Positions 951 through 21,151 of a stretch of 64,000 nt of DNA are shown here, one piece after another. The DNA lies in assembly GCA_965612745.1 (NCBI GenBank), contig CBFDTD010000005.1, forward strand, positions 498-64,497, given 5' to 3'. The notes beneath the pieces were generated by a model. It made no database searches, had not been told where the DNA came from, and saw only the letters and a list, made by a program, of their open reading frames with translations. The position numbers were made by a program, and so were the translations under genes. Origin of the DNA: an uncultured bacterium. GTDB lineage: Bacteria > Chloroflexota > Anaerolineae > B4-G1. Every line of letters begins with the position of its first letter. Position 1 is the stretch's first letter.

Positions 951-995
951 GTAGTGCCTCTGGGTAGTGCCTCTGGCGAGGAACCCTTGAGAGCA

Positions 996-3797: not shown

Positions 3798-3846
3798 TTG
3801 TATCAATAGTTTAACCCCAAACCCTTTGGCAACTGGAGAGGGAGAA

Positions 3847-7369: not shown

Positions 7370-7446
7370 GCCGAGGTAGCTCAGCCTGGTAGAGCACCTG
7401 ACTGAAAATCAGGGAGTCGCCAGTTCAAATCTGGCCCTCGGCACCA
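7370..7446 (+). tRNA. tRNA-Phe (GAA)
   Basis: Acceptor GCCGAGG/CCTCGGC-A-CCA; D arm GCTCAGCCTGGTAGAGC; anticodon arm CCTGA-CTGAAAA-TCAGG; T loop GTTCAAAT. Confidence 0.97.
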
Positions 7447-7976
7447 TAGGGGCTGACCCGCCTGAAAAGGCGGGTCTTTTGTGTGTTCTCGGTTAATGAA
7501 AGTGTCCAAACAATGAGGGAACGGCCATTCCCTGGTTCCTCCCCAAGCACCTCGAAGCCCAAGCAGGCGTAGAAGCCACGTGCCGACAGATCGGCAGGGC
7601 ACTTGAGGAACACCGTCAGTTTTCCCAGCGCCGACGCCTCGGCACACAGCGCGTTGACCAGCGCACGTCCTACCCCCTGCTGGCGGCACTGGGGAATCAC
7701 GGCAATGTGATAGAGTGTGGTCTGCGCGTCGCGGCGGTGGTGATACTCGGCGAAACCGATAAGTCCCTGGTGATTCTCTGCAACCAGCACTTCCCCGCGC
7801 CCGATCGACTCTGCCAGTGCCGGGCGCAAGACAAAGCCCAACTCATGCCGGTGTGCATCGGCAATGGCCTTGATGGCATCCAGGTCGGCAGGGGTGGCTT
7901 TGCGGATGACCAGGGTCTCAGTCGCTCCAAAGGTCAAGACGTTCCTCCTCGACTGGGGCGACGCTGCTGCCACCAT
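7425..7976 (-). CDS. GNAT family N-acetyltransferase (start uncertain, probably near 7915)
   Basis: IRKATPAD start of fold; LYHIAV..CRQQGVGRAL acetyl-CoA motif A; ARGFY..LGF. Confidence 0.85.
   Translation of the reverse strand: MVAAASPQSRRNVLTFGATETLVIRKATPADLDAIKAIADAHRHELGFVLRPALAESIGRGEVLVAENHQGLIGFAEYHHRRDAQTTLYHIAVIPQCRQQGVGRALVNALCAEASALGKLTVFLKCPADLSARGFYACLGFEVLGEEPGNGRSLIVWTLSLTENTQKTRLFRRVSPYGAEGQI
7455..7480 (+). terminator. Rho-independent terminator after tRNA-Phe
   Basis: GACCCGCCT-GAAA-AGGCGGGTC-TTTT. Confidence 0.85.
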
Positions 7977-9126
7977 GACGGCTTCGACGCGGGCGGATGC
8001 TCAGGTGGTGCACTGTCTCGCGCTCGTCGTCCACCAGAATGGCCTCTCCCACTCGCTTCAGCCTCTTTATGAGCGCCTGAAGTTCGCTGCCCATATAATC
8101 CTGGCTGAGCCGGTTGAGGGCGCTGACGTCGTCGCGGGTAGTGAGTTTATGGCTCAGGACCACGTCACATTGAGACAGCACCTCACGGTCAATGGCCGAC
8201 GGCCGCTGGCTGGCAACGATGAGCGAAAGACCAGGTTGGCGTCCCTCTTTGGCCCAGCGCACCAGTTGCTCTTTCGCCAGTGTCGTGCCACCGGCAGGCA
8301 CGAACTGATGGGCCTCGTCAATCGCCAGCCAGATACGCGGCAGCGGCGACGCCAGCCCAAACTCCTCCCGCAACCGGGCATCGGCGCGGGCACGGAAAAG
8401 ATTGCGTGCGATGACAGAGACAGTCAGATTGCGCCGGCCACGCGGCCCGCTCTCCAACCGGCTCAGGTCTACGATGTTGACGACCCCTGGCCGGAAGATG
8501 GCATCCATCGGCATATAACCATTTTCGGCAAAGATACGCCAGGTGCGGGCGGCTTCCAGGCGATTAAGCAGCGCCTCTTGTGTAGTCTCGTTGGCCCGTT
8601 CGTCTGTCCCAACAGCCCGAGCAATGTCGCGCACGGTGAAGTCACGACCCCGTTCAATCAGGGACTGGACAGCACGGAAGAGAACGATCCCCAGCGGCTG
8701 GTTAATATTGGCGCCGAAGAGTTCGCACCAGCCATCAGGAGACAGATCGGCCGCGTTTAACTGCAAGGGGACGACCTCGACCTGACGTTCTCGCAGTGCA
8801 CGCAACACATCGGGATCGTAGAGTGCTTCAGGGTCACCTGGGACCAGCATCCGCACGGGATAGCCGCGTGGGTTCAAAGCCCAGCGGAAAAGGTCGTCGC
8901 GTTGCAGTTCGTTGGGCAGGCTCATCGTGTGGTAGACGCCGATGGGGTCTACAATGATGGGGATGATAGCATCGGCAGCCGCCGTCAGCAATTCTTCGAC
9001 AAAGACCCCTAGGGTGTAAGATTTGCCGCTGCCCCGCTTGCCGCAGATGAGCACAGCGCGCGCACCGCCGGCCTCCAGATAGACCGGCCCGTTGTGAACT
9101 GCGTCCCGACCCAGTAACAACTTCAT
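7918..9126 (-). CDS. HerA-like (DUF87) ATPase/translocase
   Basis: ICGKRGSGKSYTL Walker A; IIVDPIG; LAIDEAHQF Walker B; EGRQPG; SQRP; ATG 9126 overlaps the pglZ-like stop (ATGA). Confidence 0.88.
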   Translation of the reverse strand: MKLLLGRDAVHNGPVYLEAGGARAVLICGKRGSGKSYTLGVFVEELLTAAADAIIPIIVDPIGVYHTMSLPNELQRDDLFRWALNPRGYPVRMLVPGDPEALYDPDVLRALRERQVEVVPLQLNAADLSPDGWCELFGANINQPLGIVLFRAVQSLIERGRDFTVRDIARAVGTDERANETTQEALLNRLEAARTWRIFAENGYMPMDAIFRPGVVNIVDLSRLESGPRGRRNLTVSVIARNLFRARADARLREEFGLASPLPRIWLAIDEAHQFVPAGGTTLAKEQLVRWAKEGRQPGLSLIVASQRPSAIDREVLSQCDVVLSHKLTTRDDVSALNRLSQDYMGSELQALIKRLKRVGEAILVDDERETVHHLSIRPRRSRHGGSSVAPVEEERLDLWSD

Positions 9127-10241
9127 TCTGTTATCTCCCATCTGATGAACGGCACGATGCTCTCCTGGACTGACAGCCCACCGTGTACACCACTATCGTT
9201 GCGACGGATCGCCGCGCCCAGGTAGGGCCAATGATACACGTAGAACGTTCGTTCGCCAAACGTGAAACGTGTAGCGTGCTCTGTGCCGGCAGGCAGGTGA
9301 GTGCCATAGCGCGGATGTACCCGGTCGTTGGTCTCCAGCATCTCGAAGGTGTGTTCGGCTTTCCAGAGAATGCCGTGATCGGCAGTAAGGTAGAGGGCTG
9401 CCGGGCGTGGGCCTTCCCGCAACACGTCGAGCAACGCTAACGCGTCGGCGCGGATGGCCTGCACCGCCTGGCGCACTTCCCCAGGCGTGACCTCGCGCCG
9501 GGCGTGGGCCAGTCCGTCCAGCCCTTCACGCACGACTTGAACGTAGGTGCACTCCAGGTTAGCGCTTCGCAGCGCCGCTACTGCCTCCGAGAATCTGGCC
9601 ACGCGGGTCAGCGGCACTCCCTCAAAGAGATACTCAGATACCGCGTTTGTCTCGCGCGACCAGTAGGAGAAGCCACGTGAGTGCAGTAGACCCACTTCGA
9701 TCAGCCGCCGGGCCAGTCGAGGGGCACCGATGATGCCGGGAAAGCCAACCTCCGGCAGGATGCGCCGGCCTTCTCTCTCTTGATAGTAGGTAATGGATGG
9801 ACCATCCACCAGGCAGGGTTGCACAGGCTCAGGCCAGTCGGCCACGTCGGCGTAGCCCAGTCCATCCACCAGCAGCAAGGCAACGGTGCGGTAACAACGT
9901 TGGGCAGCATCGGCCACGATGCGGTCGGCAACGGTGCGGTGGGTGAGCCAGCGGCGGCGGACGTAGTCGAGTCGCCCTGGCAATGCGCGATTGACAACAT
10001 CAAGCGGTGGCGGTGTTGAGGCATCGGCCTGCAAGAAGCGGTCTGCCATGCGGGGCTGTACATCGGTGAGCCAGATGGGACGGACGGCGTGATGGGCCAG
10101 GTCATCCAGTTCCTCCGCCAGTGCAGCAGCGTCGGCCAATACTTCGGTCTCTGGTGGCAGACAGAGAGCCTGCAGGGGATGCAGCGGCCCCATGACAGGC
10201 GCCTGCATCAGCAGGCGGGCAAGTTCGGCGGGATCGGTCAC
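9123..10241 (-). CDS. pglZ: PglZ-like alkaline-phosphatase-superfamily protein
   Basis: LLLVDGLGY, PSIT, YLTADHG and HGGLSVQESIVP match the PglZ core motifs. Confidence 0.8.
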   Translation of the reverse strand: MTDPAELARLLMQAPVMGPLHPLQALCLPPETEVLADAAALAEELDDLAHHAVRPIWLTDVQPRMADRFLQADASTPPPLDVVNRALPGRLDYVRRRWLTHRTVADRIVADAAQRCYRTVALLLVDGLGYADVADWPEPVQPCLVDGPSITYYQEREGRRILPEVGFPGIIGAPRLARRLIEVGLLHSRGFSYWSRETNAVSEYLFEGVPLTRVARFSEAVAALRSANLECTYVQVVREGLDGLAHARREVTPGEVRQAVQAIRADALALLDVLREGPRPAALYLTADHGILWKAEHTFEMLETNDRVHPRYGTHLPAGTEHATRFTFGERTFYVYHWPYLGAAIRRNDSGVHGGLSVQESIVPFIRWEITE

Positions 10242-10247
10242 AGCCTG

Positions 10248-13200
10248 CTACCCTTCGTCGTAGTGCACAGGACGCACCTGAATCTGCACGCGCTGTTTTT
10301 CCCACAGGCCACGTAACGCCGACCAGAGCGTTTCGTTGTCAGTCCTGCGGGCTTCCGCGCGCAGGCTGGTCAGGTCTGTGAAGCCGTCGGCGGGCGAGAT
10401 CCTCTCCAACGCTTTCCAGACCTGCGTCTCCTCCGGGCTGAGGGCCTGTTTGCGGAGAACGGTGGTGATGGCGTCGAGGCCCTGGCGGGTGTTGTCCAGT
10501 TGTTCGTAGAGCACCTTGAGTTCGGCCAGCAATGTGCGAAAGGCGCCGCTATCTTCCCCGGCGGGGAAATCGCGGATGATGTCCAGATCGGCAGCACGCT
10601 CCAGTGCCTGCACCAGTGCATCTCCAACCTGGCTCAACTGCGTTTCGAGTTCGCGTCCCTGCCGCTCGATGTGCCTCCGCTCACGAGGCGGCAAATCGGC
10701 TAATCGGGGGGTATTGAGCAGGTTGCGCACGCCGGAGAGGTGAGTGGATTGCAGCCGCTGCATACGCTCTACCACATCGGCTAAGGCACCGGCAACGAGG
10801 CCATAGAGTTGCTGATAGATGCCCATTGGATCGAGCGTGCTGTATATGAGCGGTTCCCATAGCCGGTCGCGGGGATAGCCGATGATGCGCACCAGTTCGT
10901 TCCGGTAGCGGTCTTGCAGGTCATTGAACGCCTCCACTGCTTGACCGCGAAGGCGTCGGGCCTGCCCCCGCAGTTCATTGAGCCGTGAGGCATAGGTGGT
11001 TACGTTGGACAGGGCATCGAGGGCATGGGCGCTGATGTCTCCCCGAATGTCCCGGCTCAATCTGTCGAAAGCGTCCAAAAGATCCTGGGCCGGATCGCCC
11101 AGGACTTGCAGATCATCGAAAAGACGTGCACCATCCTCGACCAGGCGGCACCAGTCGGTGAACTGGCGGTACTGCTCGGCCAACGTCTCGCCCGACTTGT
11201 AGATGGCAACAGCGTCTTTATCCAGGTCACGCAGCGCAGCAGCCTGTTTAGCCAGTTCCGACAGAGGCAACTCCTCATCCGCCAGCGTGCGCTCGACAGC
11301 CTCCAGTCTCCGGCGCAGATCATCTACCCGATTGCCAAAGCGCGTATAGGCGCGCAGCAAACGGACGCGCAGGTTATTGACCTGATCGGCGTATTTGACA
11401 CCGGTCACCTGGGTCTCCAGCGTGCTGCGGCGGTGCACGTCCAGACCTGGTAGACGGCCGAGCAGGTTGGTGGCCTTCTGGCGCAACTCGGCCCGACGGC
11501 TCTCCGCGGTTGCCCTGACGTCGCGCAGGCGGGTGGCGACGGTGCGACGCAGACTGACGATGGTCGCTTCCTCCGCTGTGGTGCGCAATTCTTCGACTTT
11601 GGCAACGTACTTTTCTGTCTCCTCAGCCAGCCGCCGGAACTCTTTGGCCTGAGGGAAAGCGGCTTGCAAGTAACTGATGCTGGATTGCAGTTCAGCGACT
11701 GCGTCGGCCACCTCGTCAATGGAGGGCACCTGGCGCAGTGCCTCGCGCAGGTTGCCGCGCCGGTCGCGCTCGATGAGGCCGCGGGCTTCCATCACGTCGA
11801 GCAGGGCGTCCACCTCTTCTTCTTTGTAGCCCAGTTCGGTCGCCTGGGCGTAGACCCGACCGATGGGCAGCCGGTGCAGGGTATATGTCTTGCCTGCACT
11901 CTTCACCTTTGTCGTATCGGGGCTGGCCTGAAGCCAGGCGCGGATCTGGGCCTCCAGAGGGTGAAGCCGAAAGCGCACAGCCCCGGTTGCGCCCTGTTTA
12001 GCCTGACGGCGGGTGGGGAAATCGCGCACCGGCTCGATAAGGTCGGGGAAATTGGCCATGAAACTGTCGAGGCCGGTGTGTGTCAGCGTAAAGAGATCGG
12101 CAATGTCCTCTTTCAGACCCTCGACGTTCATCTGCCCCTGTTTTTCGGGCCACGAGGGCAGGCGGTGCAGTGCGTTGATGTATTTCTGAATGGAACTCTG
12201 CCAGTTGCCGACGGCAATGAGCGTGTGATAGTCATCCCCGTAGCGCGCCTCAAGCAGTTGACCGATCACGACCTCCACCAGGCGCGCCCCTGCAGCGTCG
12301 AAGGCTGCGCCGACCTCGGGCCGTAGCAACTCCATCAGCGCGTTGTCGAGCAAAGCGGGCTGAAACTGATACTGGACGAGTTGGTCGTCGGCTTTGGGGA
12401 TCTGACGGGCACGCCGCTTTTCGTTGATCACCTCGTGCAACGTCAGGAGCAGGAGGGGTGTGAGTTTGAATGGGGAAACGATCTTGCCGATGGCTGTGTC
12501 CAACTCGCGACTGACGCCGACGGTACGGCCCATCAGGTTGAGGGTGAAACGGGCAGTGTGGGCTTCGAGGTCAAGTTCGACCGGCTCGACGTGATGGCGG
12601 CGGGTCTCCTCGTCCCAGTCCAGGTAACGGCGCAAGCGGAACTCGAGAACGATCTCACCCAAGGGGTTGGCGTCCTTGACCGGCTCGTCTTCCACCAGCA
12701 CGCGCACGTGGACCCTGCGCTGAGGGAAGCGGCGGGCTGCGCTGGGAAATGCCCCTTCCAGCACCAGCCCGGCGTTCTGAGTCATTCGCGACCGGAGCCG
12801 TTCCACCACCTTCCACTGGCCCGGTCGGAAGACGTGGCCGGTGAGCAGGTCGAGGAAGCCTTCAACAGCACGTTGGGTGGTCTTTTCGGCGCTTTCGTAG
12901 TAGGTGCGGCTGAACTCGCGCACGGTGAGCGTGAGCCAGTCGGTCTTGACCTCACCTCGCTCCAGTCCCAGCAAGGTGAAACCCGGATTGCGCACGCTGC
13001 CGACACGGATGACCAAATCGCCCGCTCCACTCTGGAACAGGTCGTCGAAGATGGGCCGCAGGTCTACACCAAGGCATCTTCTCTGAATCTCTCTGGTAGC
13101 CCCCTCCTCGGGGAAGGCGGCCGCCAGTTTGACGGCTATCTCGCGGTCGGGATGGCCGTGCACCAGAGTATGGCCCAGGGCGCGGGTGGTGACCTCTTGC

Positions 13201-14315
13201 ACCCGTTTGACGCCGTCGAAGCGGATAGCCCCGCTCAAGAAGTCGTCTACCAGGTCCACAGGCGAATAGGGGCCGGCGTCGGGCTGCTCTAAATAGCGGC
13301 GGGCAATGCGGCGGAAAGCGTTGACGACGGTGCGCGGGCCGTTGGAGAGGTCCTTGCGAACGCTGATCTGACCCAGGGCGGCCAGCGTTTCTGGACGTAC
13401 CATAGCCTCCGTGTGCTCTGCAAACAGGAACTCTTTCGCCAGCCGATCCCACAACCGCGCCGGGAAGGACTGATCGTAGATGGCGTCAAGGTCAAGCGCC
13501 AGCCCGCGCATACGATCCACGAAGTCTCCGCGCTGGTCAATGATGACGGAAAGCTCTTTACGCGGGATGACGAGGATAAGACCAAAGGCCAGGTGGTTGC
13601 GGCGGGTAGCCAGTCCCTGGATGATGTTGAACAGAGGCGCGACAGGGTCTTTGGCGCCAGACTTGACCTCCGGCTCGATGTATTGCTGAATCTCGTCGGC
13701 CAGGACGAGCAGTCCCTCAAAGCCGGCCTGGTGGGCCAATGCCGTCATCTGCTCGAAGAAGTGAATGTAGTCGGGGGCGGTAAGGTCGAGCGTGAGGCGC
13801 CCGTCACGCAACCACCGGCGCAGGGTGTTGAGAGCGGCGCCGCTCTCGTCGGCCATCTGCTGTAGGCTGCGTTCGGCAAAGGTGACGTAGACCGCCTCGG
13901 CCTGGTCGCACAGGCTGGGTCTGGAACGGGAGAGAACGTACTTCATCCAGCCGTAGGTAGCGACGATGAGGCTGGGCAGACGGGTGAGTTGGAAAGGGGG
14001 CACGGCCACCAGGTTGGCCTGTTGAGCCTGATCCCAGAGATAGAGGGCCGTGCTGGTCTTGCCGTAGCCGAAATCGGCGGTGAGATAGCCACGCGGGGCC
14101 AGATTGTCCTTGATCTGGCGGATGAGGCGACGGGAGAATTCTTCGACGCTGAGGCGGCTTTCACCCCGGCCGGCGTGTAGGGGCACATAGGTGCGCACGT
14201 GGGCCTTGTAGGCATCGTCTACCTCACGGGGGCGCTCCAGGAGCGCTTCCGCCGTCTGGGTGGCGACGACCTCTTCTTTGGTTAGTACAACATTCAGACA
14301 TTCCAGGCTGGACAT
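10248..14315 (-). CDS. Large P-loop ATPase with long coiled-coil C-terminus (BrxC/PglY-like)
   Basis: Walker A ADFGYGKTS; Walker B LVLADEIQQY; GPR motif; helical C-terminal half; directly upstream of the PglZ-like gene; RBS GAGAGGG before ATG 14315. Confidence 0.7.
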   Translation of the reverse strand: MSSLECLNVVLTKEEVVATQTAEALLERPREVDDAYKAHVRTYVPLHAGRGESRLSVEEFSRRLIRQIKDNLAPRGYLTADFGYGKTSTALYLWDQAQQANLVAVPPFQLTRLPSLIVATYGWMKYVLSRSRPSLCDQAEAVYVTFAERSLQQMADESGAALNTLRRWLRDGRLTLDLTAPDYIHFFEQMTALAHQAGFEGLLVLADEIQQYIEPEVKSGAKDPVAPLFNIIQGLATRRNHLAFGLILVIPRKELSVIIDQRGDFVDRMRGLALDLDAIYDQSFPARLWDRLAKEFLFAEHTEAMVRPETLAALGQISVRKDLSNGPRTVVNAFRRIARRYLEQPDAGPYSPVDLVDDFLSGAIRFDGVKRVQEVTTRALGHTLVHGHPDREIAVKLAAAFPEEGATREIQRRCLGVDLRPIFDDLFQSGAGDLVIRVGSVRNPGFTLLGLERGEVKTDWLTLTVREFSRTYYESAEKTTQRAVEGFLDLLTGHVFRPGQWKVVERLRSRMTQNAGLVLEGAFPSAARRFPQRRVHVRVLVEDEPVKDANPLGEIVLEFRLRRYLDWDEETRRHHVEPVELDLEAHTARFTLNLMGRTVGVSRELDTAIGKIVSPFKLTPLLLLTLHEVINEKRRARQIPKADDQLVQYQFQPALLDNALMELLRPEVGAAFDAAGARLVEVVIGQLLEARYGDDYHTLIAVGNWQSSIQKYINALHRLPSWPEKQGQMNVEGLKEDIADLFTLTHTGLDSFMANFPDLIEPVRDFPTRRQAKQGATGAVRFRLHPLEAQIRAWLQASPDTTKVKSAGKTYTLHRLPIGRVYAQATELGYKEEEVDALLDVMEARGLIERDRRGNLREALRQVPSIDEVADAVAELQSSISYLQAAFPQAKEFRRLAEETEKYVAKVEELRTTAEEATIVSLRRTVATRLRDVRATAESRRAELRQKATNLLGRLPGLDVHRRSTLETQVTGVKYADQVNNLRVRLLRAYTRFGNRVDDLRRRLEAVERTLADEELPLSELAKQAAALRDLDKDAVAIYKSGETLAEQYRQFTDWCRLVEDGARLFDDLQVLGDPAQDLLDAFDRLSRDIRGDISAHALDALSNVTTYASRLNELRGQARRLRGQAVEAFNDLQDRYRNELVRIIGYPRDRLWEPLIYSTLDPMGIYQQLYGLVAGALADVVERMQRLQSTHLSGVRNLLNTPRLADLPPRERRHIERQGRELETQLSQVGDALVQALERAADLDIIRDFPAGEDSGAFRTLLAELKVLYEQLDNTRQGLDAITTVLRKQALSPEETQVWKALERISPADGFTDLTSLRAEARRTDNETLWSALRGLWEKQRVQIQVRPVHYDEG

Positions 14316-14332
14316 ATTCCCTCTCCACTGTT

Positions 14333-14734
14333 TCAGCACTGCGCCAACTGTTCCTCTACCCAGGACAGCACATCACCTGCTACCTCCAGGGCGGAACGTG
14401 CCTCTTCCTGAGTAACGGGTTCCCAGTCACCTGGATAGCGTGTCTGCACTGCATACTGGGTAAGGATCAAAGCTTCATCCACATTAGCCGGTATCGCCAT
14501 CCCAGATGCCCGAAGTATGTCGAGAAGTGTTTCCAATATATGGGTACGTGGAAACGGTATGCCTCGTCCCAACATCAGCGCTTTCAGAGCCTTCTCCGCA
14601 CACTGTTGGGCATGAAAACAGACGTCTTCCAACAGCACATTGGGCGATCTCACTCCTGCGAACGCCAGAGCCAGGTCGGAGTGGGCTCTCTTCAGCCACG
14701 CTTGGGGAGAATCAGGAGGCGGACGTTCGTTCAT
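14333..14734 (-). CDS. HEPN domain protein (MNT-HEPN pair)
   Basis: WLKRAHSDL, CFHAQQCAEKALKA, PRTH, TRYP. Confidence 0.9.
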   Translation of the reverse strand: MNERPPPDSPQAWLKRAHSDLALAFAGVRSPNVLLEDVCFHAQQCAEKALKALMLGRGIPFPRTHILETLLDILRASGMAIPANVDEALILTQYAVQTRYPGDWEPVTQEEARSALEVAGDVLSWVEEQLAQC

Positions 14735-15050
14735 ATAGCACCTTTCCCTCTCTCAGCGCCGATTCGTAAATCAAACTGGTGGTATGCTGATACCGTCTGA
14801 TCTGTTCTGGCGTGGCAACAATGACGTCTATCGGTACCAACAGCCCTCGCAGGGCACGGCGGATGTATGTGCTCTCTCGTCGTGGATGGGTGATGCCCTT
14901 GATGATGACGAGCAGATCCAGGTCGCTGGCGGGACCGGCGTTGCCCCGCGCGTATGAGCCGAACAGGATGATCTGCTCCGGTTTCGTGATCGTCAATATA
15001 CGGCGCGTGATCTCGTCCAGCAGTCCCTGTATCTCGTCTGCATCTGGCAT
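14712..15050 (-). CDS. Minimal nucleotidyltransferase (MNT)
   Basis: IILFGSYARG..SDLDLLV (GSx10DxD); IDVIV; EGKVLY; RBS GGGGAG before ATG 15050. Confidence 0.9.
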   Translation of the reverse strand: MPDADEIQGLLDEITRRILTITKPEQIILFGSYARGNAGPASDLDLLVIIKGITHPRRESTYIRRALRGLLVPIDVIVATPEQIRRYQHTTSLIYESALREGKVLYERTSAS

Positions 15051-15072
15051 ATCTCCCCCTTTCAGTATTCGC

Positions 15073-15576
15073 TTATAACACAGCACGGATCGCATCCCAC
15101 AGGCTACCTTCACGCACGGGGGGCAGGGCATAGTACTCGAGCAGGCTCAGGTTGTGGTAGACGACGTCAAAGTCGTGCGGTGTGGGAGCGGGCAAGGCTA
15201 TCGCTTGGAAGCCCATTTCGTTATGCCGATGGGTGATGAAAAGCAGAGTATGCGTACCCTTACGTTGAGCCACAGCCAACAGACTCCGTACAGTGCGCTC
15301 GCGGGCACCGGCGTTGTCCACGATGGCCCGGGGCGTTGGACGTTCACTGCGCCTGTCGAAGGCTGCCGGGCCGGGGAAGTAGGGCATCGCCAGCGACCGG
15401 CTGAGTGTCCAGGCTAGGAACGTCTTGCCGCTGCCAACCGGGCCGTACAGATTCACCGTCTCCGGGAAACGCAGCGCGTCACGTATGGCGTCGAAGGCAG
15501 CCCTTTGGCCATCGGTCAGCCAGTTGGGCTTGGCCTGGGTCTTGAGTTGGTTCAGCAAGACCAGCATCCTGCTCAT
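15073..15576 (-). CDS. Small P-loop NTPase
   Basis: VNLYGPVGSGKTFLAW Walker A; AIVDNA Walker B-like. Confidence 0.75.
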   Translation of the reverse strand: MSRMLVLLNQLKTQAKPNWLTDGQRAAFDAIRDALRFPETVNLYGPVGSGKTFLAWTLSRSLAMPYFPGPAAFDRRSERPTPRAIVDNAGARERTVRSLLAVAQRKGTHTLLFITHRHNEMGFQAIALPAPTPHDFDVVYHNLSLLEYYALPPVREGSLWDAIRAVL

Positions 15577-15644
15577 CGGTGCACATTGGGATACCGCAAC
15601 AAGTTAGTCAGTTTCCCCCCGTCCCAGTCCCATGGCAATCTCAC
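15573..15644 (-). pseudogene. N-terminal remnant of a HicA-like toxin
   Basis: GTG start overlaps the preceding stop; VRLPWDWDGGKLTNLLR resembles a HicA N-terminus; stops after 23 codons. Confidence 0.45.
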
Positions 15645-15854
15645 GCCGGTACGGCCTCTTCCCGAATGACGTGCGACCAAGCTATCGCCGGCCGATCATC
15701 CCATCGAAATGGCATCACACAGCATCCTGAACGCCCAGTTTCAATTCATCTCAGTGTCTGCTTTGGTGAAGATCGAGTGCCCCAGTGCCCTGGCCGTGTA
15801 CCCGCCTTCTGGGTCTGGCTCTACAACCAAGATAATCTCACTTACCGTACTCAT
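15641..15854 (-). pseudogene. Decayed HicB-like antitoxin
   Basis: MSTVSEIILVVEPDPEGGYTARALGHSIFTKADT / DELKLGVQDAV*CHFD / DDRPAIAWSHVIREEAVPA: two frameshifts and one internal TGA; not in the ORF track. Confidence 0.7.
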
Positions 15855-16150
15855 CCCGTTTTCCGGCCCTCCAGCGGCACGATCCGCACCTCCAGCCGTG
15901 CCCCTAGTGCCTCCACCACCCGTCGCAGGAAAGAGAGTTTGGGCTCAACCTTTCCGCTTTCCAGCCGGGCAATACTGGGTTGCTTGGTGCCTACCAGTGC
16001 GGCCAACTGCTCCTGTGTCAGTCCGCGCATAATGCGTAGCCGCGCCACCTGGTAGGCCGGTTCCAATTCCTCGGCAGCGGCCCGAAACTCCGGGTCTCTC
16101 ATTTGCTCGGCTTCCCAGTCCTCAAACCGAACGTTGCTACTTGTGCTCAT
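15851..16150 (-). CDS. higA: Xre/HTH_3 antitoxin (HigA-like)
   Basis: DPEFRAAAEEL..RIMRGLTQEQLAALVGTKQPSIARLESG; ATG 16150 overlaps the toxin stop. Confidence 0.85.
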   Translation of the reverse strand: MSTSSNVRFEDWEAEQMRDPEFRAAAEELEPAYQVARLRIMRGLTQEQLAALVGTKQPSIARLESGKVEPKLSFLRRVVEALGARLEVRIVPLEGRKTG

Positions 16151-16503
16151 TTCTCTCCCTCCAGAAACTCGGCCATCCGCCGCTCGGCGGTGGCGATCTC
16201 CCGTCTCGGCGTCTTGCGTCCCTTCTTGCGGAATCCGTGCAGGATGATGAAACGTCGCCTTGTGTGGGCGAAGTAGAACAGCCGTATTGCCCCAGGTCGC
16301 AACTCCCATAGGCTACGGTGTCCTGACACAGGCCGGGCGTAGGGCATTCCCAACAGTATCCCAAACTCGCGCAGTAGGCGCAGGTAGTTGCGCACCTTTG
16401 CCCGTTCCTGCGCCGGCAGCGCGTTGATAAACTCGACTACCGCGCTTCTGCCTCGTGCATCGGTGTAGAATTCGACTACCCACTTGTATTGCTGTGTGTC
16501 CAT
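16147..16503 (-). CDS. higB: RelE/ParE-superfamily toxin (HigB/Gp49-like)
   Basis: WVVEFY..LGMPYARP..LWELR..IILHGFRKK..KTP.REI; toxin-first gene order. Confidence 0.85.
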   Translation of the reverse strand: MDTQQYKWVVEFYTDARGRSAVVEFINALPAQERAKVRNYLRLLREFGILLGMPYARPVSGHRSLWELRPGAIRLFYFAHTRRRFIILHGFRKKGRKTPRREIATAERRMAEFLEGEK

Positions 16504-16516
16504 CGTTGCGCTCTTA

Positions 16517-16544
16517 ATTATAACTCTGTCGTTATAAAGGTCAA
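16517..16544 (-). promoter_or_regulatory. higBA promoter with overlapping palindromic operator
   Basis: Minus strand TTGACC-16 bp-TATAAT; perfect inverted repeat TTATAAC-N6-GTTATAA at 16518-16537. Confidence 0.75.
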
Positions 16545-16566
16545 GCTCCTCCAGCCGAAGACCGAG

Positions 16567-16620
16567 GCCCAGCAACTGAAGTTGCGGGCTACATTTGCAA
16601 AGCCCGCCCTCCGGCGGGCT
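16567..16620. repeat. REP-like palindromic element
   Basis: Minus strand GTAG-CCCGCAACTTCAGTTGCTGGGC hairpin plus a second hairpin AGCCCGCC-ctcc-GGCGGGCT (16601-16620). Confidence 0.5.
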
Positions 16621-16725
16621 GGCAGTCGCCGCAGGGTGGTTTAGCAACTGGCCGTCGGTCAGCCAGTTGGGCTTGGCCTGGGTCTTGAGTTGGTTCAGCA
16701 AGACCAGCATTCTGCTCATCGAGCA

Positions 16726-17538
16726 TTACGTCCCCAGGTCGCTCAACTCTGGCATCTTGCGCAACCGCACGAAGCGACCGTAAGCGCCGGTGCGCGTGCC
16801 GGGTTCGACGACTTCAGGGTATAGGGGCAGCACCCAGTCCAGCGCACGGTCAAGGGCAGTCGGCTCCAGCAGACAGACGCGGCAGAGCATCTCGCGTCGC
16901 TCGGGGGTGAGCAGCAGATCAATGCCGATCTCGGCCCCGGTTTGCCGGGCAACGTAGCCCAACGCCAGCAGCAGCAACTCCGGTGGGCAGAAGTAGCGGC
17001 GAGTGAAGGTATCCCCTTCGATGACGGGGGGACGGAGCGGACGCAACCAATGCAGCACTCCGTTTAGGCTGTCTGTACTGAGCGATACAGCCCCCTTTTT
17101 TGTCGCCGAGGCTAATGCATGGCCAAAATGCGGCGACTCACGAATCGCGCCCAGCAAGTGAGTGACCGTGGCTTCGAGCCACTGATGGGCCAGTTTACAT
17201 TCTCCCTGTGCGACCAGCCAATCGCAGAGTGTTCGGTATGTCCATAAAAAAGTGTGCTCCAACGGAGCGTCCTCGCTCCAGCGACTGTAGTGCAGGTAGT
17301 GCATAAGATCAGGCAACAGTTGGGGCTTGGTATCGGCAACACGCAAGAGATCGTCCGCCAATGGTGTCAATTCAAGCTCAGAGACTGTGCCTGTGACCAA
17401 TCCGAGGGCACGGAGCCGGCCTACCTGCCGCTCGGATTGTATCACGTAGTCAAAACTCTGTCCTCTGGCAATGGCTTGAAGCACCTCTGTGGTGCGCTCC
17501 GGCGTCACCTCATGTCGCACATGAAAATTCAGCGTCAT
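16726..17538 (-). CDS. Hypothetical protein resembling DUF4007/SspB/BrxA-like winged-helix proteins
   Basis: FHVRHE..RLRALGLV..LTPLADDL..LMHYL pattern recalls DUF4007; ATG overlaps the TGT-like stop; family call is tentative. Confidence 0.5.
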   Translation of the reverse strand: MTLNFHVRHEVTPERTTEVLQAIARGQSFDYVIQSERQVGRLRALGLVTGTVSELELTPLADDLLRVADTKPQLLPDLMHYLHYSRWSEDAPLEHTFLWTYRTLCDWLVAQGECKLAHQWLEATVTHLLGAIRESPHFGHALASATKKGAVSLSTDSLNGVLHWLRPLRPPVIEGDTFTRRYFCPPELLLLALGYVARQTGAEIGIDLLLTPERREMLCRVCLLEPTALDRALDWVLPLYPEVVEPGTRTGAYGRFVRLRKMPELSDLGT

Positions 17539-18536
17539 TGCATCACCTCTTCAGCCAATCTGGCGTACTGAGGAGAATACACTTGCAGAAGGGGAAGAAC
17601 TGCATCCGAATCCAATACCTCGAGGGTGTCCAGAATAACAGTGAGGTTGTGCATCATACGCAAATCGCGCTCCCTGACTAACCGGTCGAAGGAACGGCAA
17701 AAATAACACGAGTGACCAGTCGCGGCCTTGAGAATGTTGAAACGCTCCTCGGTCAGACCGCGTGCGGTTGGATCATCATAGGTAATGTTATAGGCTCGCA
17801 CCAGCGGCATATATATTTTGCCAAAACCCGCTGTCTTCATCCAACCCACGGAGTCGAAACTGTACACGCCGACCCTGTCCAATAAATAGATCACCGGCGG
17901 CGTACCGACGCCGAAGGCGTGAACCCGTATGCCTTGCTGTGTGAGTAAATCACTGAGTAACGACAGTGAGGAGAGGGCCTGGGGTGTAAGCGTGTTAACG
18001 CCGTTGCCTTTACCGCCGGTGCCAAAGCTGCCGAACCCAATCTGCTGAATGTCTAGCTCTGTATACACTTCCAAGCAATATTCCACTTGTTCCAACGAGT
18101 GACCGTGCACAACCGGTATGGCACGCTCCCGTAGTGAAATCGGCATTTCGTGATAGAACTGCCAACTGAGTTGCGCGGTCTCCTGCACCTTGAACCAGAC
18201 GGTATCCAGGTCATCGGATGAGGAAGGAACATAGTCCGGTAGAACATACCAGTCTCCCCACTCGTTGGCCCTGTAGAATTGCAGCAACTGCCAGTACATC
18301 TCGTAGTAGTCTATGCGTCCCATTTGGACGAAGTAGCCGCCACTGTCGAAATAGACCTGCTCGATCTGCCCGGCACCCCTCATATCTCGAATTATCGCCA
18401 ATGACCTAGGATGAATGAACAAAGGCGTGATAAGAACGTGGGCAAATGGATTTCGCTTGTCTCCACCCTCAGCCCATAGGCGTAGCAGTTTGCGTATTTT
18501 ATCCGGTTCCCGCGTGATCGAAGCAACGAACCGCAT
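17535..18536 (-). CDS. tRNA-guanine transglycosylase (TGT)-fold protein, probably DNA-directed
   Basis: YFDSGGY, VLPDYVP, IPVVHG, VHAFGVG, SFDSVGW; C-terminal HxCxxC..HN Zn-site-like motif; ATG 18536. Confidence 0.8.
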   Translation of the reverse strand: MRFVASITREPDKIRKLLRLWAEGGDKRNPFAHVLITPLFIHPRSLAIIRDMRGAGQIEQVYFDSGGYFVQMGRIDYYEMYWQLLQFYRANEWGDWYVLPDYVPSSSDDLDTVWFKVQETAQLSWQFYHEMPISLRERAIPVVHGHSLEQVEYCLEVYTELDIQQIGFGSFGTGGKGNGVNTLTPQALSSLSLLSDLLTQQGIRVHAFGVGTPPVIYLLDRVGVYSFDSVGWMKTAGFGKIYMPLVRAYNITYDDPTARGLTEERFNILKAATGHSCYFCRSFDRLVRERDLRMMHNLTVILDTLEVLDSDAVLPLLQVYSPQYARLAEEVMQ

Positions 18537-18544
18537 CGGTGACC

Positions 18545-21151
18545 TCACAAAGCAGCGTCCAACCAGCCGATGTCGGTGCTGGGTGAGATTTCTGCAAGGG
18601 GCGTATCTGAGGTGACAGGAGAGGCTGGGAGTGAATACCTTGCCCGCGCAGCCTCTACCTCTCCGAAATGTGTCAACCGATACCTGGCCCCGGAAATCGA
18701 GGTCACTACCCCCAAGGATCTTAGAATGCGCAGGCGGCTGAGTACTTCGTCTCGTGCAGTGTGGATAGCGTAGACGTCTATGTGGAACTCGCTTGTCAAT
18801 TCGGTCGCAGTGCACGGCTGCCGGGTCGCCAGGAGCACCATAAACTCGGGCATTCGTGCCAGCCGTTCCATCATACAGTTCAGGCAGAAGCGGCGCAAAG
18901 CCTGTAGATCGTCGGTCTCCGGCAAGGTGGAATGCAGGAGCGCGTCGGCAGCACGCCGGTAGACGGTGTACGGTATCAGTCCCACCACGTAGTAGGCGTT
19001 AAGCACGTTCTGGAGGTAGCGATCCGACTTCTCCAACTCGGTGCCCACCCACTTGAGCATTGTCCTGAGGAAGGCTGTTGTAGTGGGTCGCTCGCGCAGC
19101 ACACCACGCGCCACCAGCACCGACTCGAAGAAAGTGTTCCGTTCCCCCCGACGGTCGGGCAGCGGCGGCGGGCAGATGTTCAGTACCGGCTGGGCCTCCT
19201 CCAGCCGCTCGATCTCCCATTCCGTCAAGCCAAAGGTTGCGGGGGCAGCGCGATAGAAACGATCGTCGCTGAAAACTGCGGCGTGCACAGAGGAACGCTC
19301 AACACGCCAGGTCTCCAGCACCCGGTCGGTAATCGCCTCAATGTGCAGTGGATGACCAGCCTCGGTCAGCACCCTGTAGGCGGCGTTGGCCAGGCTGCCA
19401 TCGTCGGGCAACCTCCACTCCCTGAGACCAAAGGTGCCACGCCCCACGCGCACGAAGAGGTCGGTACGGCGGCCTAACTCGGCGTGAACGTTGTGGGGCG
19501 TAGCCTGCAGTTCGGGAGGTAGCAGGGCGTTAATCCGCTCCGCGATGACCGTGTAATGCGTTGGCTCCCCGATGTCCCGCAATGTCCGAACGATTGCAGG
19601 GGTGCGCCTGCGCGACCACTTGACAAGCCTGCACTGCCCACCAGTGACCTCTATCGCCCGATTTGTGCGCAGGCAAGCGCGCAGAAAGTCGTCGGACAAT
19701 GCGGACCGATGCTTTTCATAGAACCGGGAACGCTTGAATTCGGCCAGCAACTCGTCGTCGGTCAGAGAGGTAAACGTAGGCTCCATCAATCTCGCCAGCC
19801 GCCGATTGACATCGGACACGAGGTGCAAAGGAGCATCCACCAGCCCCCACACGGCCTCGCGTTTCAGTTGTTTGACGTCTTTGCGGGTGGCAAGCCACAA
19901 TCGTCCCACCCATTCGGCATCGGTATCGTTCACAGCCACGGCCTTGGCAATTGCCTGCCCCACTTCGGCTTCGGTCATTAACCCACCGGATGCTCTAAAC
20001 GCCTGAAGCAAATGCGCAGTCAACTCACGCACCCGGCGCTGCCCATTGGGGTTGGCAAGACGACTGAGTGCCCTGGTCTGAATCTGTCGCACGCGCTCCC
20101 GGGTCACGTTCAACCGTTGGCCTACCTCCTCCAGCGTCAGCGGCTCGCAGTCCAGGCCATAGCGCCATTCCAGAACCCGGCGCTCTCGATCACTGAGGGG
20201 ACCAAGCCACCGCTCGACCAAGTCGTCCAGCGTCGTCTCAGCAAGCATCAGTCGGTGCATCGGGCTGATGCCTCGCCCGGCAACCTCGTCGGCCCAGGTG
20301 GCCTCGTCTTGCTCGACCAGCCAGGTCAGATAGCGCTCCAGTTGCTTCCCGACCGAGGGGTCTTGATCAACCGCGTCGGCGGGTTGCCGAGCCAATTCAC
20401 CGACCGACTCAATGCCCCGGCGGTGGAATTGGTTACCCCAGCGAGTGGGCAAGGCTAACCGCTCAAGCGAGATGTCGTCTAAAGGAATCTGGGCGGCACG
20501 GGCCAACAGCGCCGGGGCAACTAAAGGTAAGACCGGTTCAGGTTCAACCAGCGCATTTGGTTCGGGTGGCGGCAAGGGGTGCTCAGCCAGATACGCTTCC
20601 AGTTTCTCCTCTATCTCGGCCAGGGATTTCTCACCGATGTTTCTGACATCTAGAATTTGCTCCGACGACATCCGCGCCAGTTGGCCGATAGTGGCAACAC
20701 CACCACGGACCAGGGCGTTATGTGGCCGTGCGGATAATCTCAGAACTCTAATAGGCGTGTCTTTTGGAACAAGACCCCGAGTTACAGGCGATGGCGCAGT
20801 TGAATAAGCGGAGGAGGGCGGCTCAGGTTCGGTTGGTGCGGCCAGTTTGGGTGCCGGTGGCGATTTTGAGGACCGGCCTTGCTCGGGCAGTGGATGGCTG
20901 TCCAGGTAGAGCGTCAATTTCTCGCGGATCTCTGCGAGAGTGAGGACACCCAAGTTGCGGATGCCCAGAAGTTGCTCATCGGCCAACGCAGCGACTTCGG
21001 CAACGGCGCGCAACCCGGCACGTCGGAGGCAATTATAGGCGCGGGTTGATAGGCCAAGGGCATCCAGGGGTGTGTCATCCAGAGATAATGGCTGATCGTT
21101 TGAGTGAGGGTCGCGTTCTTGGCGAGGCTTCCCCGGCATTGCTTTGCCCAA
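18545..21151 (-). CDS. RNA polymerase alpha-CTD repeats + sigma70 region 4 + HARE-type HTH protein
   Basis: LGLSTRAYNCLRRAG..IRNLG and LSARPHNALVRGG..VRNIGEKS (alphaCTD x2); LTLEEVGQRLNVTRERVRQI (sigma region 4); GEPTHY..FVRVGRGTFGL and GHPLH..FYRAAPATFGL (HTH x2). ATG alternative at 21139. Confidence 0.82.
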   Translation of the reverse strand: MGKAMPGKPRQERDPHSNDQPLSLDDTPLDALGLSTRAYNCLRRAGLRAVAEVAALADEQLLGIRNLGVLTLAEIREKLTLYLDSHPLPEQGRSSKSPPAPKLAAPTEPEPPSSAYSTAPSPVTRGLVPKDTPIRVLRLSARPHNALVRGGVATIGQLARMSSEQILDVRNIGEKSLAEIEEKLEAYLAEHPLPPPEPNALVEPEPVLPLVAPALLARAAQIPLDDISLERLALPTRWGNQFHRRGIESVGELARQPADAVDQDPSVGKQLERYLTWLVEQDEATWADEVAGRGISPMHRLMLAETTLDDLVERWLGPLSDRERRVLEWRYGLDCEPLTLEEVGQRLNVTRERVRQIQTRALSRLANPNGQRRVRELTAHLLQAFRASGGLMTEAEVGQAIAKAVAVNDTDAEWVGRLWLATRKDVKQLKREAVWGLVDAPLHLVSDVNRRLARLMEPTFTSLTDDELLAEFKRSRFYEKHRSALSDDFLRACLRTNRAIEVTGGQCRLVKWSRRRTPAIVRTLRDIGEPTHYTVIAERINALLPPELQATPHNVHAELGRRTDLFVRVGRGTFGLREWRLPDDGSLANAAYRVLTEAGHPLHIEAITDRVLETWRVERSSVHAAVFSDDRFYRAAPATFGLTEWEIERLEEAQPVLNICPPPLPDRRGERNTFFESVLVARGVLRERPTTTAFLRTMLKWVGTELEKSDRYLQNVLNAYYVVGLIPYTVYRRAADALLHSTLPETDDLQALRRFCLNCMMERLARMPEFMVLLATRQPCTATELTSEFHIDVYAIHTARDEVLSRLRILRSLGVVTSISGARYRLTHFGEVEAARARYSLPASPVTSDTPLAEISPSTDIGWLDAAL

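Follow-up and report, generated by a model that had tools for sequence, protein, structure and literature searches.

The window analysed in this study is a stretch of 64,000 nucleotides (nt) from an uncultured Chloroflexota bacterium of the class Anaerolineae (GenBank assembly GCA_965612745.1, contig CBFDTD010000005.1, positions 498 to 64,497). It contains a cluster of genes in which a transglycosylase of the TGT fold is encoded together with a GNAT acetyltransferase, a BrxC-like ATPase, a PglZ-like enzyme and a HerA ATPase. Judged by its gene content, the cluster is a member of the BREX-Related Capture (BRC) family, and it probably encodes a restriction-modification-like anti-phage system in which the cell's own DNA would be marked by exchange of a base. 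A first-pass annotation of the sequence had described a minus-strand run of seven genes with toxin-antitoxin (TA) inserts between them; all seven were found where it had placed them, the large ATPase being 1363 amino acids (aa) long. The tight coupling that it claimed is confirmed by the coordinates, as with the inserts disregarded the neighbouring genes either overlap by 4 nt or are separated by 6-8 nt. The list of components was incomplete, since a further tightly coupled gene (18545-21151), ending 8 nt ahead of the TGT start, had been left out; with it, one co-directional run of genes covers 7425-21151 on the minus strand. The features of this run, from its upstream end, are as follows.

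18545-21151, minus strand: accessory protein of 868 aa with two RNA polymerase alpha-CTD domains, sigma-70 region 4 and HARE-HTH.
17535-18536, minus strand: TGT-fold transglycosylase of 333 aa, a DpdA-like paralogue by fold and motifs; presumed DNA guanine-exchange enzyme.
16726-17538, minus strand: multi-winged-helix protein of 270 aa, DUF4007-like or DpdG-like according to models; presumed DNA-recognition subunit.
16649-16721, no strand assigned: upstream copy of a 73-nt direct repeat, duplicating the 5' end of the NTPase gene.
16147-16719, minus strand: inserted Gp49/HigB-like toxin open reading frame (ORF), fused in frame to 24 duplicated codons (Pfam Gp49, 4.4e-23).
15851-16309, minus strand: inserted HTH (XRE-type) antitoxin (Pfam HTH_3, 1.3e-12).
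15073-15576, minus strand: small P-loop NTPase of 167 aa (weak AAA_25, AAA_16 and AAA matches).
14712-15131, minus strand: inserted MNT-type nucleotidyltransferase, the antitoxin of a HEPN-MNT pair (Pfam NTP_transf_2, 4.9e-11).
14333-14734, minus strand: inserted HEPN protein, the toxin of the HEPN-MNT pair (Pfam HEPN, 2e-27).
10248-14339, minus strand: BrxC/PglY-like (DUF6079-type) AAA+ ATPase of 1363 aa, with Walker A motif GYGKTS and a long coiled-coil C-terminal half.
9123-10241, minus strand: PglZ-like enzyme of the alkaline phosphatase superfamily, 372 aa; presumed nuclease or phosphodiesterase effector.
7918-9141, minus strand: HerA/FtsK-type ATPase of 407 aa (Pfam DUF87, 4.2e-12); presumed DNA translocase.
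7425-7976, minus strand: GNAT N-acetyltransferase of 183 aa (Pfam Acetyltransf_7, 3.9e-14), partner of TGT.

The relation of the 333-aa protein to known transglycosylases is distant in sequence and clear in structure. Its match to the Pfam TGT profile (5.3e-5, 22.9 bits) lies below the cut-off of 26.3, it also scores under the cut-off of Pfam DpdA, and a PDB search with the sequence alone returned nothing relevant; with a profile of the family, the relation to PDB entries becomes visible at E ~0.04. The family comprises 423 clusters at E ≤0.001 out of 1940 candidates, and some of its members show weak matches to DpdA (Pfam PF23859, 6.1e-7; PADLOC PDLC02807, 5.8e-10, for locus L043). The AlphaFold model (pLDDT 91.2) finds as its best Foldseek matches, with about equal strength, a bacterial TGT (2ash, 8e-9) and the DNA preQ0 insertase DpdA (7ui4, 4e-8). 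The TGT fold and the motifs DSGG, HAFG and FDS, both named in the first-pass annotation, are thus present: FDSGG, HAFGV and SFDS occur in the translation, and D64 (FDSGG), D228 (SFDS), H206 and G209 (HAFGV), H275, C277, C280 and H296 are invariant across 35 homologues. An hhalign comparison with the host's own Tgt aligns SFDS with the nucleophile motif MFDC, pairs HAFGVGTPP with YLMGVGTPE and places the Cys/His cluster at the zinc site. On the strength of these residues and the predicted fold, the protein looks catalytically competent. It is a divergent, additional paralogue distinct from the tRNA enzyme, because the host genome encodes a separate canonical Tgt on another contig (C89; 526 bits against Pfam TGT, compared with 22.9 for the window protein); being below the Pfam cut-off and not the sole copy in the genome, the window protein does not pass for the canonical Tgt. 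A predicted complex of TGT with the DUF4007-like protein scored 0.20 against a mark of 0.32, which speaks neither for nor against binding.

Relatives of the cluster were collected in a census anchored on TGT, with one genome per species. A relative is encoded in 107 stretches (107 species genomes), and the best 80 loci were kept. A steady companion of TGT in these loci is the GNAT protein, whose translation contains the acetyl-CoA motif RQQGVGRAL and whose matches among PDB profiles are small-molecule and N-terminal amine acetyltransferases (60 best of 148 matches). A GNAT relative was detected in 67 of the 80 loci by tblastn and in 65 by blastp on ORFs. By blastp, 30 loci have it fused to TGT in a single frame, 14 have it directly upstream and 20 at the end of the operon, and in one locus it stands elsewhere; among the 15 loci where it was missed, 12 are cut by a contig end, and L046 and L076 contain a GNAT stretch detectable by tblastn. 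Since the two proteins are fused in 30 of the 80 loci, adjacent in 14 more and paired alone in a virus, they probably act together.

The virus in question is the Thermocrinis Great Boiling Spring virus (BK013347.1), where positions 36079-37256 (L085:3953-5130) hold a GNAT gene beside a shortened TGT gene and none of the other core genes. The GNAT product shares 44% and the TGT product 40% identity with its counterpart in the window. Both genes adjoin those for a sliding clamp, a helicase, a nuclease and a DNA polymerase, that is, they lie in the replication module, which is a place where phages keep their DNA-modification genes. The viral genome of 41 kb has no annotated Que genes, and the available text of the paper on this virus does not mention the GNAT-TGT pair. 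The one locus returned by a scan of IMG/VR, L088, was not counted as viral, as it resembles a cellular locus of the Druantia-linked type described below.

The gene order of the window recurs in 41 of the 80 loci. TGT, the 270-aa protein, the big ATPase, PglZ and HerA occur together in this order in the window and 40 other loci, whose carriers belong to Chloroflexota, Latescibacterota, Poribacteria, Gemmatimonadota and Vulcanimicrobiota and include a Methanosarcina. The arrangement is far beyond chance, and the synteny is conserved well outside the phylum of the host. The constant core of the loci consists of GNAT, TGT, the DUF4007-like protein and the BrxC-like ATPase: a relative of the 270-aa protein was detected in 68 of 80 loci when the window protein served as query and in 77 when the query came from the Druantia-linked loci, and the BrxC-like ATPase in 73 (tblastn). 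PglZ and HerA were each found in just 43 of the 80 (tblastn), the small NTPase in 37 (tblastn) or 41 (blastp on ORFs), and the 868-aa protein in 38 by tblastn, directly upstream and on the same strand in 35, none of them Druantia-linked.

Comparison of closely related loci revealed a mosaic structure. Between the window (9123-18536) and L011 (2869-12134), the NTPase, BrxC-like ATPase, PglZ and HerA are 84-90% identical, compared with 42% for TGT and 48% for the 270-aa protein, and the break point coincides with the site of the window's TA insert. The same pattern was seen in five further pairs of loci, and in Poribacteria it is reversed, with TGT 76-82% and the BrxC-like ATPase 45-49% identical. 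Five loci (L008, L014, L016, L027 and L037) contain the core without either PglZ-HerA or the Druantia genes considered next, and have other large upstream genes; those of L008, L016 and L027 had no family match in scans of these loci. In another six (L023, L033, L034, L039, L043 and L054), two tandem or nearby pairs of DUF4007-like and BrxC-like genes, one of the short and one of the long type, stand behind a single GNAT-TGT.

Another 21 of the 80 loci, to which we refer as class B, lack PglZ, HerA and the small NTPase, and in them the core adjoins DruF, DruL and DruE. The core itself is made up of GNAT-TGT, a DUF4007-like relative of 270-300 aa and a shorter BrxC-like ATPase, and the neighbours were identified by PADLOC (DruF 1.1e-24, DruL 1.1e-12, DruE4 1570 bits). 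Loci of this class include L043:645-9422, L080:7211-12496, L015, L023, L033, L039, L047, L054, L059 and L060, and also L063, L067-L070, L072, L073 and L075. In L080, the four listed core and Dru ORFs are co-directional, with junctions ranging from an overlap to a 3-nt gap, and DruE then follows at 10253; L063 and L068 have the same co-directional order. In the Chloroflexota loci of class B, the Dru genes are divergent neighbours. In a tree of 81 TGT sequences, built by a quick method and rooted at the midpoint for drawing only, 20 of the 21 Druantia-linked sequences fall into one clade (SH-aLRT 98), and two changes between the PglZ-HerA and Druantia contexts suffice. Druantia type IV was defined by DruE, DruF and DruL, without the methylase DruM, according to the available text of the defining paper (PMC8565338). 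Because PglZ-HerA accompany the core in 41 loci and Druantia IV genes do so in 21, the core behaves like a modification module with exchangeable restriction modules, as far as can be judged from gene content and sequence identity. In the literature searched we found no tie between Druantia and a transglycosylase, DpdA, a deazaguanine or an acetyltransferase.

Two plasmids also deserve mention. A class B locus lies on the conjugative plasmid pOSC7112.01 of the cultured cyanobacterium Oscillatoria nigro-viridis PCC 7112 (L086:13551-28601); it encodes a fused GNAT-TGT, annotated just as GNAT, and proteins of 277 and 1301 aa, with DruE and DruL on the other strand. A TGT relative is present on a plasmid of Haloplanus sp. 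HW8-1.

The remaining proteins of the operon are recognisable to different degrees. HerA is readily identified (PADLOC HerA 2.2e-27 and mad8 3.5e-25; NCBIfam anti-phage HerA 1.1e-17) and is the best conserved component, with 50-90% identity to the window protein across the class A loci. The proposal that the cluster contains BrxC-like and PglZ-like proteins is backed by Pfam in part of the orthologues rather than in the window proteins themselves. Pfam BrxC_BrxD was matched by 9 of 34 orthologues of the 1363-aa ATPase, with a best E-value of 8.9e-5, but not by the window protein; no DUF6079 match was listed, and an SMC-like coiled-coil match was obtained (4.3e-6). Its Walker A residues G91, G93, K94 and T95 and the acidic pair D215/E216 are invariant across the 34 orthologues. 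Pfam PglZ and Phosphodiest were each matched by 10 of 32 orthologues of the PglZ-like protein, but the window protein gives faint PglZ matches in PADLOC and NCBIfam (3e-4 to 7e-3; PADLOC 3.1e-4). Its metal-site residues D126, T151, D242, H246, D288/H289 and H353 are invariant, and its profile finds PorX (8ted, 0.015) and PglZ (9zn5_B, 0.16) in PDB.

The first-pass annotation had called the 270-aa protein DUF4007-like, and one structural comparison points that way where Pfam does not: its ESM Atlas model aligns with a DUF4007 cluster at a TM score of 0.70 over 236 residues, but Pfam DUF4007 matched none of 40 orthologues, which had no Pfam match whatever. The protein is modelled by AlphaFold at a pLDDT of 96; in PDB, the profile and a Foldseek search with the model gave local winged-helix matches and no match over the whole protein. 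An ESM Atlas feature score of 0.90 to DpdG-like clusters is a lead only. The small NTPase has the P-loop GPVGSGKT and weak, generic AAA-family matches. The 868-aa protein matches Pfam RNA_pol_A_CTD (5.8e-38), Sigma70_r4 (7.7e-18) and HARE-HTH (2.3e-11), as well as the middle region of PglW (1.8e-18) and MzaA (5.3e-8) in PADLOC; by these domains, it is likely a sensor or regulator that binds DNA or RNA polymerase. No BrxC, DpdG or Dru match was returned by PADLOC for the core proteins of the window or of class B.

The first-pass annotation had left room for the cluster being undescribed, and here it did not stand, as the cluster matches a named system. BRC is already in print as a system type predicted in silico (Nucleic Acids Res 2026;54(3):gkag035, PMC12839542; bioRxiv 10.1101/2025.10.09.681413). 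The available text of that paper lists seven components, namely PglZ, a DUF6079/BrxC-like ATPase, an active STAND NTPase described as a BrxB homologue (the small NTPase of our locus), DUF4007 (BrxA-like), HerA/FtsK, GNAT and TGT; it reports a computational search that started from PglZ and found 45 taxa, with HerA in all and GNAT/TGT in a subset, notes the absence of DpdB and DpdC, and suggests that TGT inserts dPreQ0 (PMC12839542). The window has counterparts of all seven in a conserved co-directional neighbourhood, clear ones of HerA/FtsK, GNAT and TGT and more tentative ones of PglZ, the BrxC-like ATPase, the small NTPase and DUF4007. As in BRC, DpdB, DpdC and a methylase are lacking, and the family is spread widely but sparsely, reaching into the archaea. 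It differs by the upstream RpoA-CTD/sigma-r4/HARE-HTH gene and by the two TA inserts. The census, starting from TGT, makes GNAT, TGT, the DUF4007-like and the BrxC-like proteins the constant part, with PglZ/HerA in 43 of 80 loci, although the supplementary data of the paper may list some of these loci. The word Druantia does not occur in the paper (PMC12839542). The Druantia IV link, the viral GNAT-TGT pair, the exchange of modules and the Que-gene census presented below did not turn up in the literature searched.

Other known systems resemble the locus in part. Like BREX types 1-6 and Ssp/BREX type 4, it combines a BrxC/PglY-like ATPase with a PglZ-like enzyme, it has a DUF4007-like protein as in SspB and BREX type 4, and the presumed overall logic, to mark own DNA and restrict the remainder, is the same. 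Unlike them, it has no PglX methyltransferase, PAPS-reductase-like BrxP/SspD or BrxL in the operon or in the scanned ORFs of the window, its PglZ-like enzyme is short (372 aa), and HerA, GNAT and TGT are added. The window ORFs scanned with Pfam were those of ≥180 aa, and among them there was no methyltransferase, PAPS reductase, ParB-like, DUF328 or Que gene; the first-pass annotation had likewise recognised no methyltransferase, PAPS reductase, BrxL, DpdB or Que gene in the window. To our knowledge, the BRC family is alone among BREX-like systems in being predicted to mark DNA by base exchange, where others use methylation or phosphorothioation.

The Dpd system also uses a TGT-fold DNA transglycosylase as the marking enzyme, and likeness to it extends to BrxC-like ATPases and to a DpdG-like protein (the above lead only). 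In the available text of a preprint on YprA helicases, DpdH/I are called BrxC-like and DpdG is listed beside them (10.1101/2025.09.15.676423). The trio of TGT, a DpdG/DUF4007-like protein and a BrxC-like ATPase is common to Dpd, BRC and the Druantia-linked form, and in class B relatives the YprA-family helicase DruE occupies the place of DpdJ. The window locus is not a Dpd system, because DpdB (ParB-like), DpdC (DUF328) and other Dpd genes (DpdD/E/F/K) as well as genes of preQ0 synthesis are absent from the scanned ORFs; PADLOC gave no Dpd match for the window proteins, and GNAT, the obligate partner in the window family, is not a Dpd gene. The resemblance to Druantia type IV concerns the relatives (21 of 80 loci) and not the window, where no Dru match was found among the scanned proteins. 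The window HerA matches mad8 over its full length, which is a likeness to MADS; the model of its authors makes mad6, mad7 and mad8 all mandatory, and identity with MADS was rejected, as mad8 alone was matched and none of mad1-7 in the other operon proteins. MADS marks DNA by m6A methylation, according to the available text (PMC13662399).

Which base TGT could insert was approached through the queuosine genes of 50 of the 80 carrier genomes, chosen as those whose loci have the longest flanks. Canonical Tgt is encoded in 50 of the 50, QueA in 46, full-length QueC in 30 and QueF in 27. The 20 carriers without QueC are all Chloroflexota, and they include complete chromosomes (L016, L035, L043) and an isolate, Chloroflexus islandicus; 18 of them keep QueA and 19 lack QueF. 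Four genomes, that of Methanosarcina among them, have QueC without QueF. The host genome, which is 95.9% complete, contains canonical tgt and queA, and no full-length QueC (two N-terminal PP-loop fragments are present), QueD/PTPS, QueF or YhhQ-type transporter was found in it. As QueC is missing, preQ0 would not be made in the host and in 20 of 50 carriers. By the logic of the queuosine pathway, such QueC/QueF-less cells must import preQ1, and preQ0 is neither made in them nor usable for tRNA; imported preQ1 is the sole 7-deazaguanine expected in QueC-less carriers. That absence of QueC might mean no deazaguanine at all was considered and rejected, since Tgt in 50 and QueA in 46 of 50 genomes show a salvage economy. 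We favour preQ1 over preQ0 because the host and 20 carriers lack QueC while retaining tgt and, in most cases, queA, and because the GNAT profile is that of amine N-acetyltransferases. In the reading that we prefer, TGT would insert preQ1 where it is available, and GNAT would acylate its aminomethyl group.

These results can be assembled into a model of the system. The TGT-fold enzyme would flip guanine out at specific sites of the cell's own DNA and, through a covalent intermediate between Asp and deoxyribose, replace it by another base, most likely a 7-deazaguanine. GNAT would act on the same substrate, the preferred guess being N-acylation of the preQ1 aminomethyl group, either before the base is inserted or afterwards. 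Recognition of the site and reading of its modification state may fall to the multi-winged-helix DUF4007/DpdG-like protein together with the BrxC-like ATPase; unmarked DNA would then be captured and damaged by the small NTPase, the PglZ-like phosphodiesterase and the HerA translocase. Of this model, the folds, the conservation of catalytic residues and of synteny and the fusions of GNAT with TGT are observed, whereas the DNA substrate, the base, the part played by GNAT, the distinction of self from non-self and the defence phenotype are inferred. That DNA is the substrate is supported by the nature of the partners (HerA, the BrxC-like ATPase, PglZ and winged-helix proteins), which are DNA machines. 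A BREX chassis with a base-exchange enzyme as the marker and with GNAT and HerA added, as the first-pass annotation read the cluster, is compatible with all findings, and we regard anti-phage defence with this kind of self-marking as probable.

A more far-reaching version can be put forward tentatively. GNAT and TGT may form a portable, self-contained cassette that writes a DNA base not described so far, either N-acylated 7-aminomethyl-7-deazaguanine from salvaged preQ1 or a base unconnected with queuosine, and the pair of DUF4007/DpdG-like and BrxC-like proteins may read this mark. The core would be plugged into at least two unrelated back-ends, PglZ-HerA-NTPase and DruF-DruL-DruE, giving Druantia IV, for which no self-marking enzyme is known so far, a marking module in these genomes, and the hyperthermophilic virus would have taken the writer pair as a counter-defence. 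In this extended form, the proposal is possible rather than likely.

Several points weigh against the interpretation. No single base of the Que pathway can be made in all hosts, so that the base may vary by host or may not be a 7-deazaguanine; the absence of genes from the host is short of proof, as the assembly is 95.9% complete. GNAT could act on a protein. Sequence gives weak backing to the PglZ, BrxC and DUF4007 assignments, which depend on structure or on the analysis in print. Expression of this copy could suffer from the TA insertions. Finally, no modified base, motif or phage phenotype is reported for any BRC member, and we found no follow-up in the literature.

Of the competing explanations, the one closest to our model keeps the system and adopts the published chemistry: TGT would insert preQ0 (yielding dPreQ0), the small NTPase would replace DpdB, and GNAT would acetylate another target, e.g. 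a protein, or be accessory. This was proposed in the BRC paper, in the part of its text that is available (PMC12839542); furthermore, preQ0 is the base inserted by DpdA, which by fold is the closest of the relatives that act on DNA, the weak DpdA matches given above were obtained for some family members, and QueC occurs in 30 of 50 carrier genomes. It is difficult to reconcile with the lack of full-length QueC, QueD and QueF in the host and with the 20 carriers devoid of QueC, complete chromosomes and the C. islandicus isolate included, and it leaves both the GNAT-TGT fusion (30 of 80 loci) and the virus carrying just this pair unexplained. We consider it unlikely.

Another possibility would be that TGT and GNAT are effectors, with TGT stripping guanines from invading DNA in the manner of a restriction glycosylase, thereby leaving covalent adducts or abasic sites for PglZ and HerA, and with GNAT protecting or regulating. 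PglZ-family enzymes are phosphodiesterases and could cut at damaged sites; the catalytic Asp residues of TGT are conserved, and base supply by the Que pathway is missing in many hosts, which would all agree with such a role. A virus that carries GNAT and TGT in its replication module is hard to reconcile with a DNA-damaging effector, though, and in class B the pair occupies the place that the methylase DruM has in Druantia type II, as described in the available text of PMC8565338. Moreover, every other BrxC/PglZ system has a self-marking enzyme as its partner, according to the available text of PMC12839542. These considerations make the effector role quite improbable.

It might also be supposed that GNAT and TGT act on tRNA, altering or disabling that of the host or the phage, with the role of the BREX-like proteins limited to sensing the infection. 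The TGT superfamily, to which the best Foldseek matches belong, has tRNA as its ancestral substrate, and small GNATs of similar size include toxins that acetylate tRNA. Nevertheless, canonical Tgt is already present in 50 of 50 carrier genomes; the proteins that accompany the pair (HerA, the BrxC-like ATPase, the winged-helix protein, the DruE helicase) are machines that work on DNA; tRNA-acetylating toxins are absent from the 60 best of 148 GNAT profile matches; and the C-terminal tRNA-binding domains of archaeosine TGT are absent, because the protein has only 333 aa. A role in tRNA modification is therefore very unlikely.

The TA genes of the operon, which the first-pass annotation had recognised as inserts, form two cassettes, Gp49/HigB-like with HTH and HEPN with MNT; both are later insertions at gene junctions and lie outside the system proper. 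The Gp49/HTH cassette is flanked by a 73-nt direct repeat (15506-15578 and 16649-16721, 97% identity, spacing 1143), which repeats the start of the NTPase gene over 24 codons, and the Gp49 toxin ORF has no relative in the 80 loci. Seven other loci (L001, L002, L011, L013, L022, L044 and L066) have unexplained inserts of ~380-1570 nt at the junctions DUF4007-like/NTPase or NTPase/BrxC-like, none related to the TA genes of the window. Four metagenome runs were inspected; their contigs are short, and neither the uncovered parts nor the joints with 30 letters a side (7520-15608 and 16386-19366) are interpretable. The cassette at 15608-16386 appears there at raised depth and with loose ends at 16579-16636, as if it were also located elsewhere. 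In one contig each of runs X2 and X3, from two studies, 14282 is joined to 15072, which would skip the HEPN-MNT cassette (14283-15071), the stretch between being not known; other contigs of the same runs run through the cassette. This is a weak hint of presence/absence variation of HEPN-MNT. That this copy is an inactive remnant, its operon broken by the two cassettes, one of which came with the 73-nt duplication of the NTPase gene start, is scarcely credible, as seven frames are intact with lengths matching those of orthologues (1363 aa versus 1340-1366 aa for the ATPase), catalytic residues are retained, the duplication restores a complete NTPase start, and inserts of 380-960 nt occur at the same junctions in other loci.

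The surroundings of the operon (954-7344 and 24236-63119) resemble a conflict island. They encode an nSTAND1 NTPase, a CotH/lamin-tail (LTD)/beta-helix protein, a NACHT-HEAT-FGE-sulfatase protein and a TPR-CHAT protein, and there is also a series of giant VWA and Tubulin_2 proteins (986-1767 aa). Between the operon and the upstream part of the island, at 21230-23098 and 78 nt upstream of the operon, lies a gene for a 622-aa protein with a PIN domain at its N-terminus (1.1e-6) and, in its C-terminal part, a faint resemblance to PbeA or Dnd restriction helicases (PADLOC PbeA 1.5e-9). This PIN and helicase-like gene was considered as a component of the system and dropped, as the 80 loci contain no relative of it.

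The distribution of queuosine genes speaks against preQ0 and points to preQ1 or another base as the one inserted, with GNAT likely providing a second step. Cultured carriers, among them Oscillatoria nigro-viridis PCC 7112 (with pOSC7112.01), Chloroflexus islandicus isl-2 and Aggregatilineales SYSU G02658, make the identity of the mark directly testable. If the core is a general marking module, it could explain how self is told from non-self in a Druantia type that has no methylase of its own. If the proposed chemistry is true, acylated deazaguanine in DNA would join the short list of natural DNA hypermodifications.

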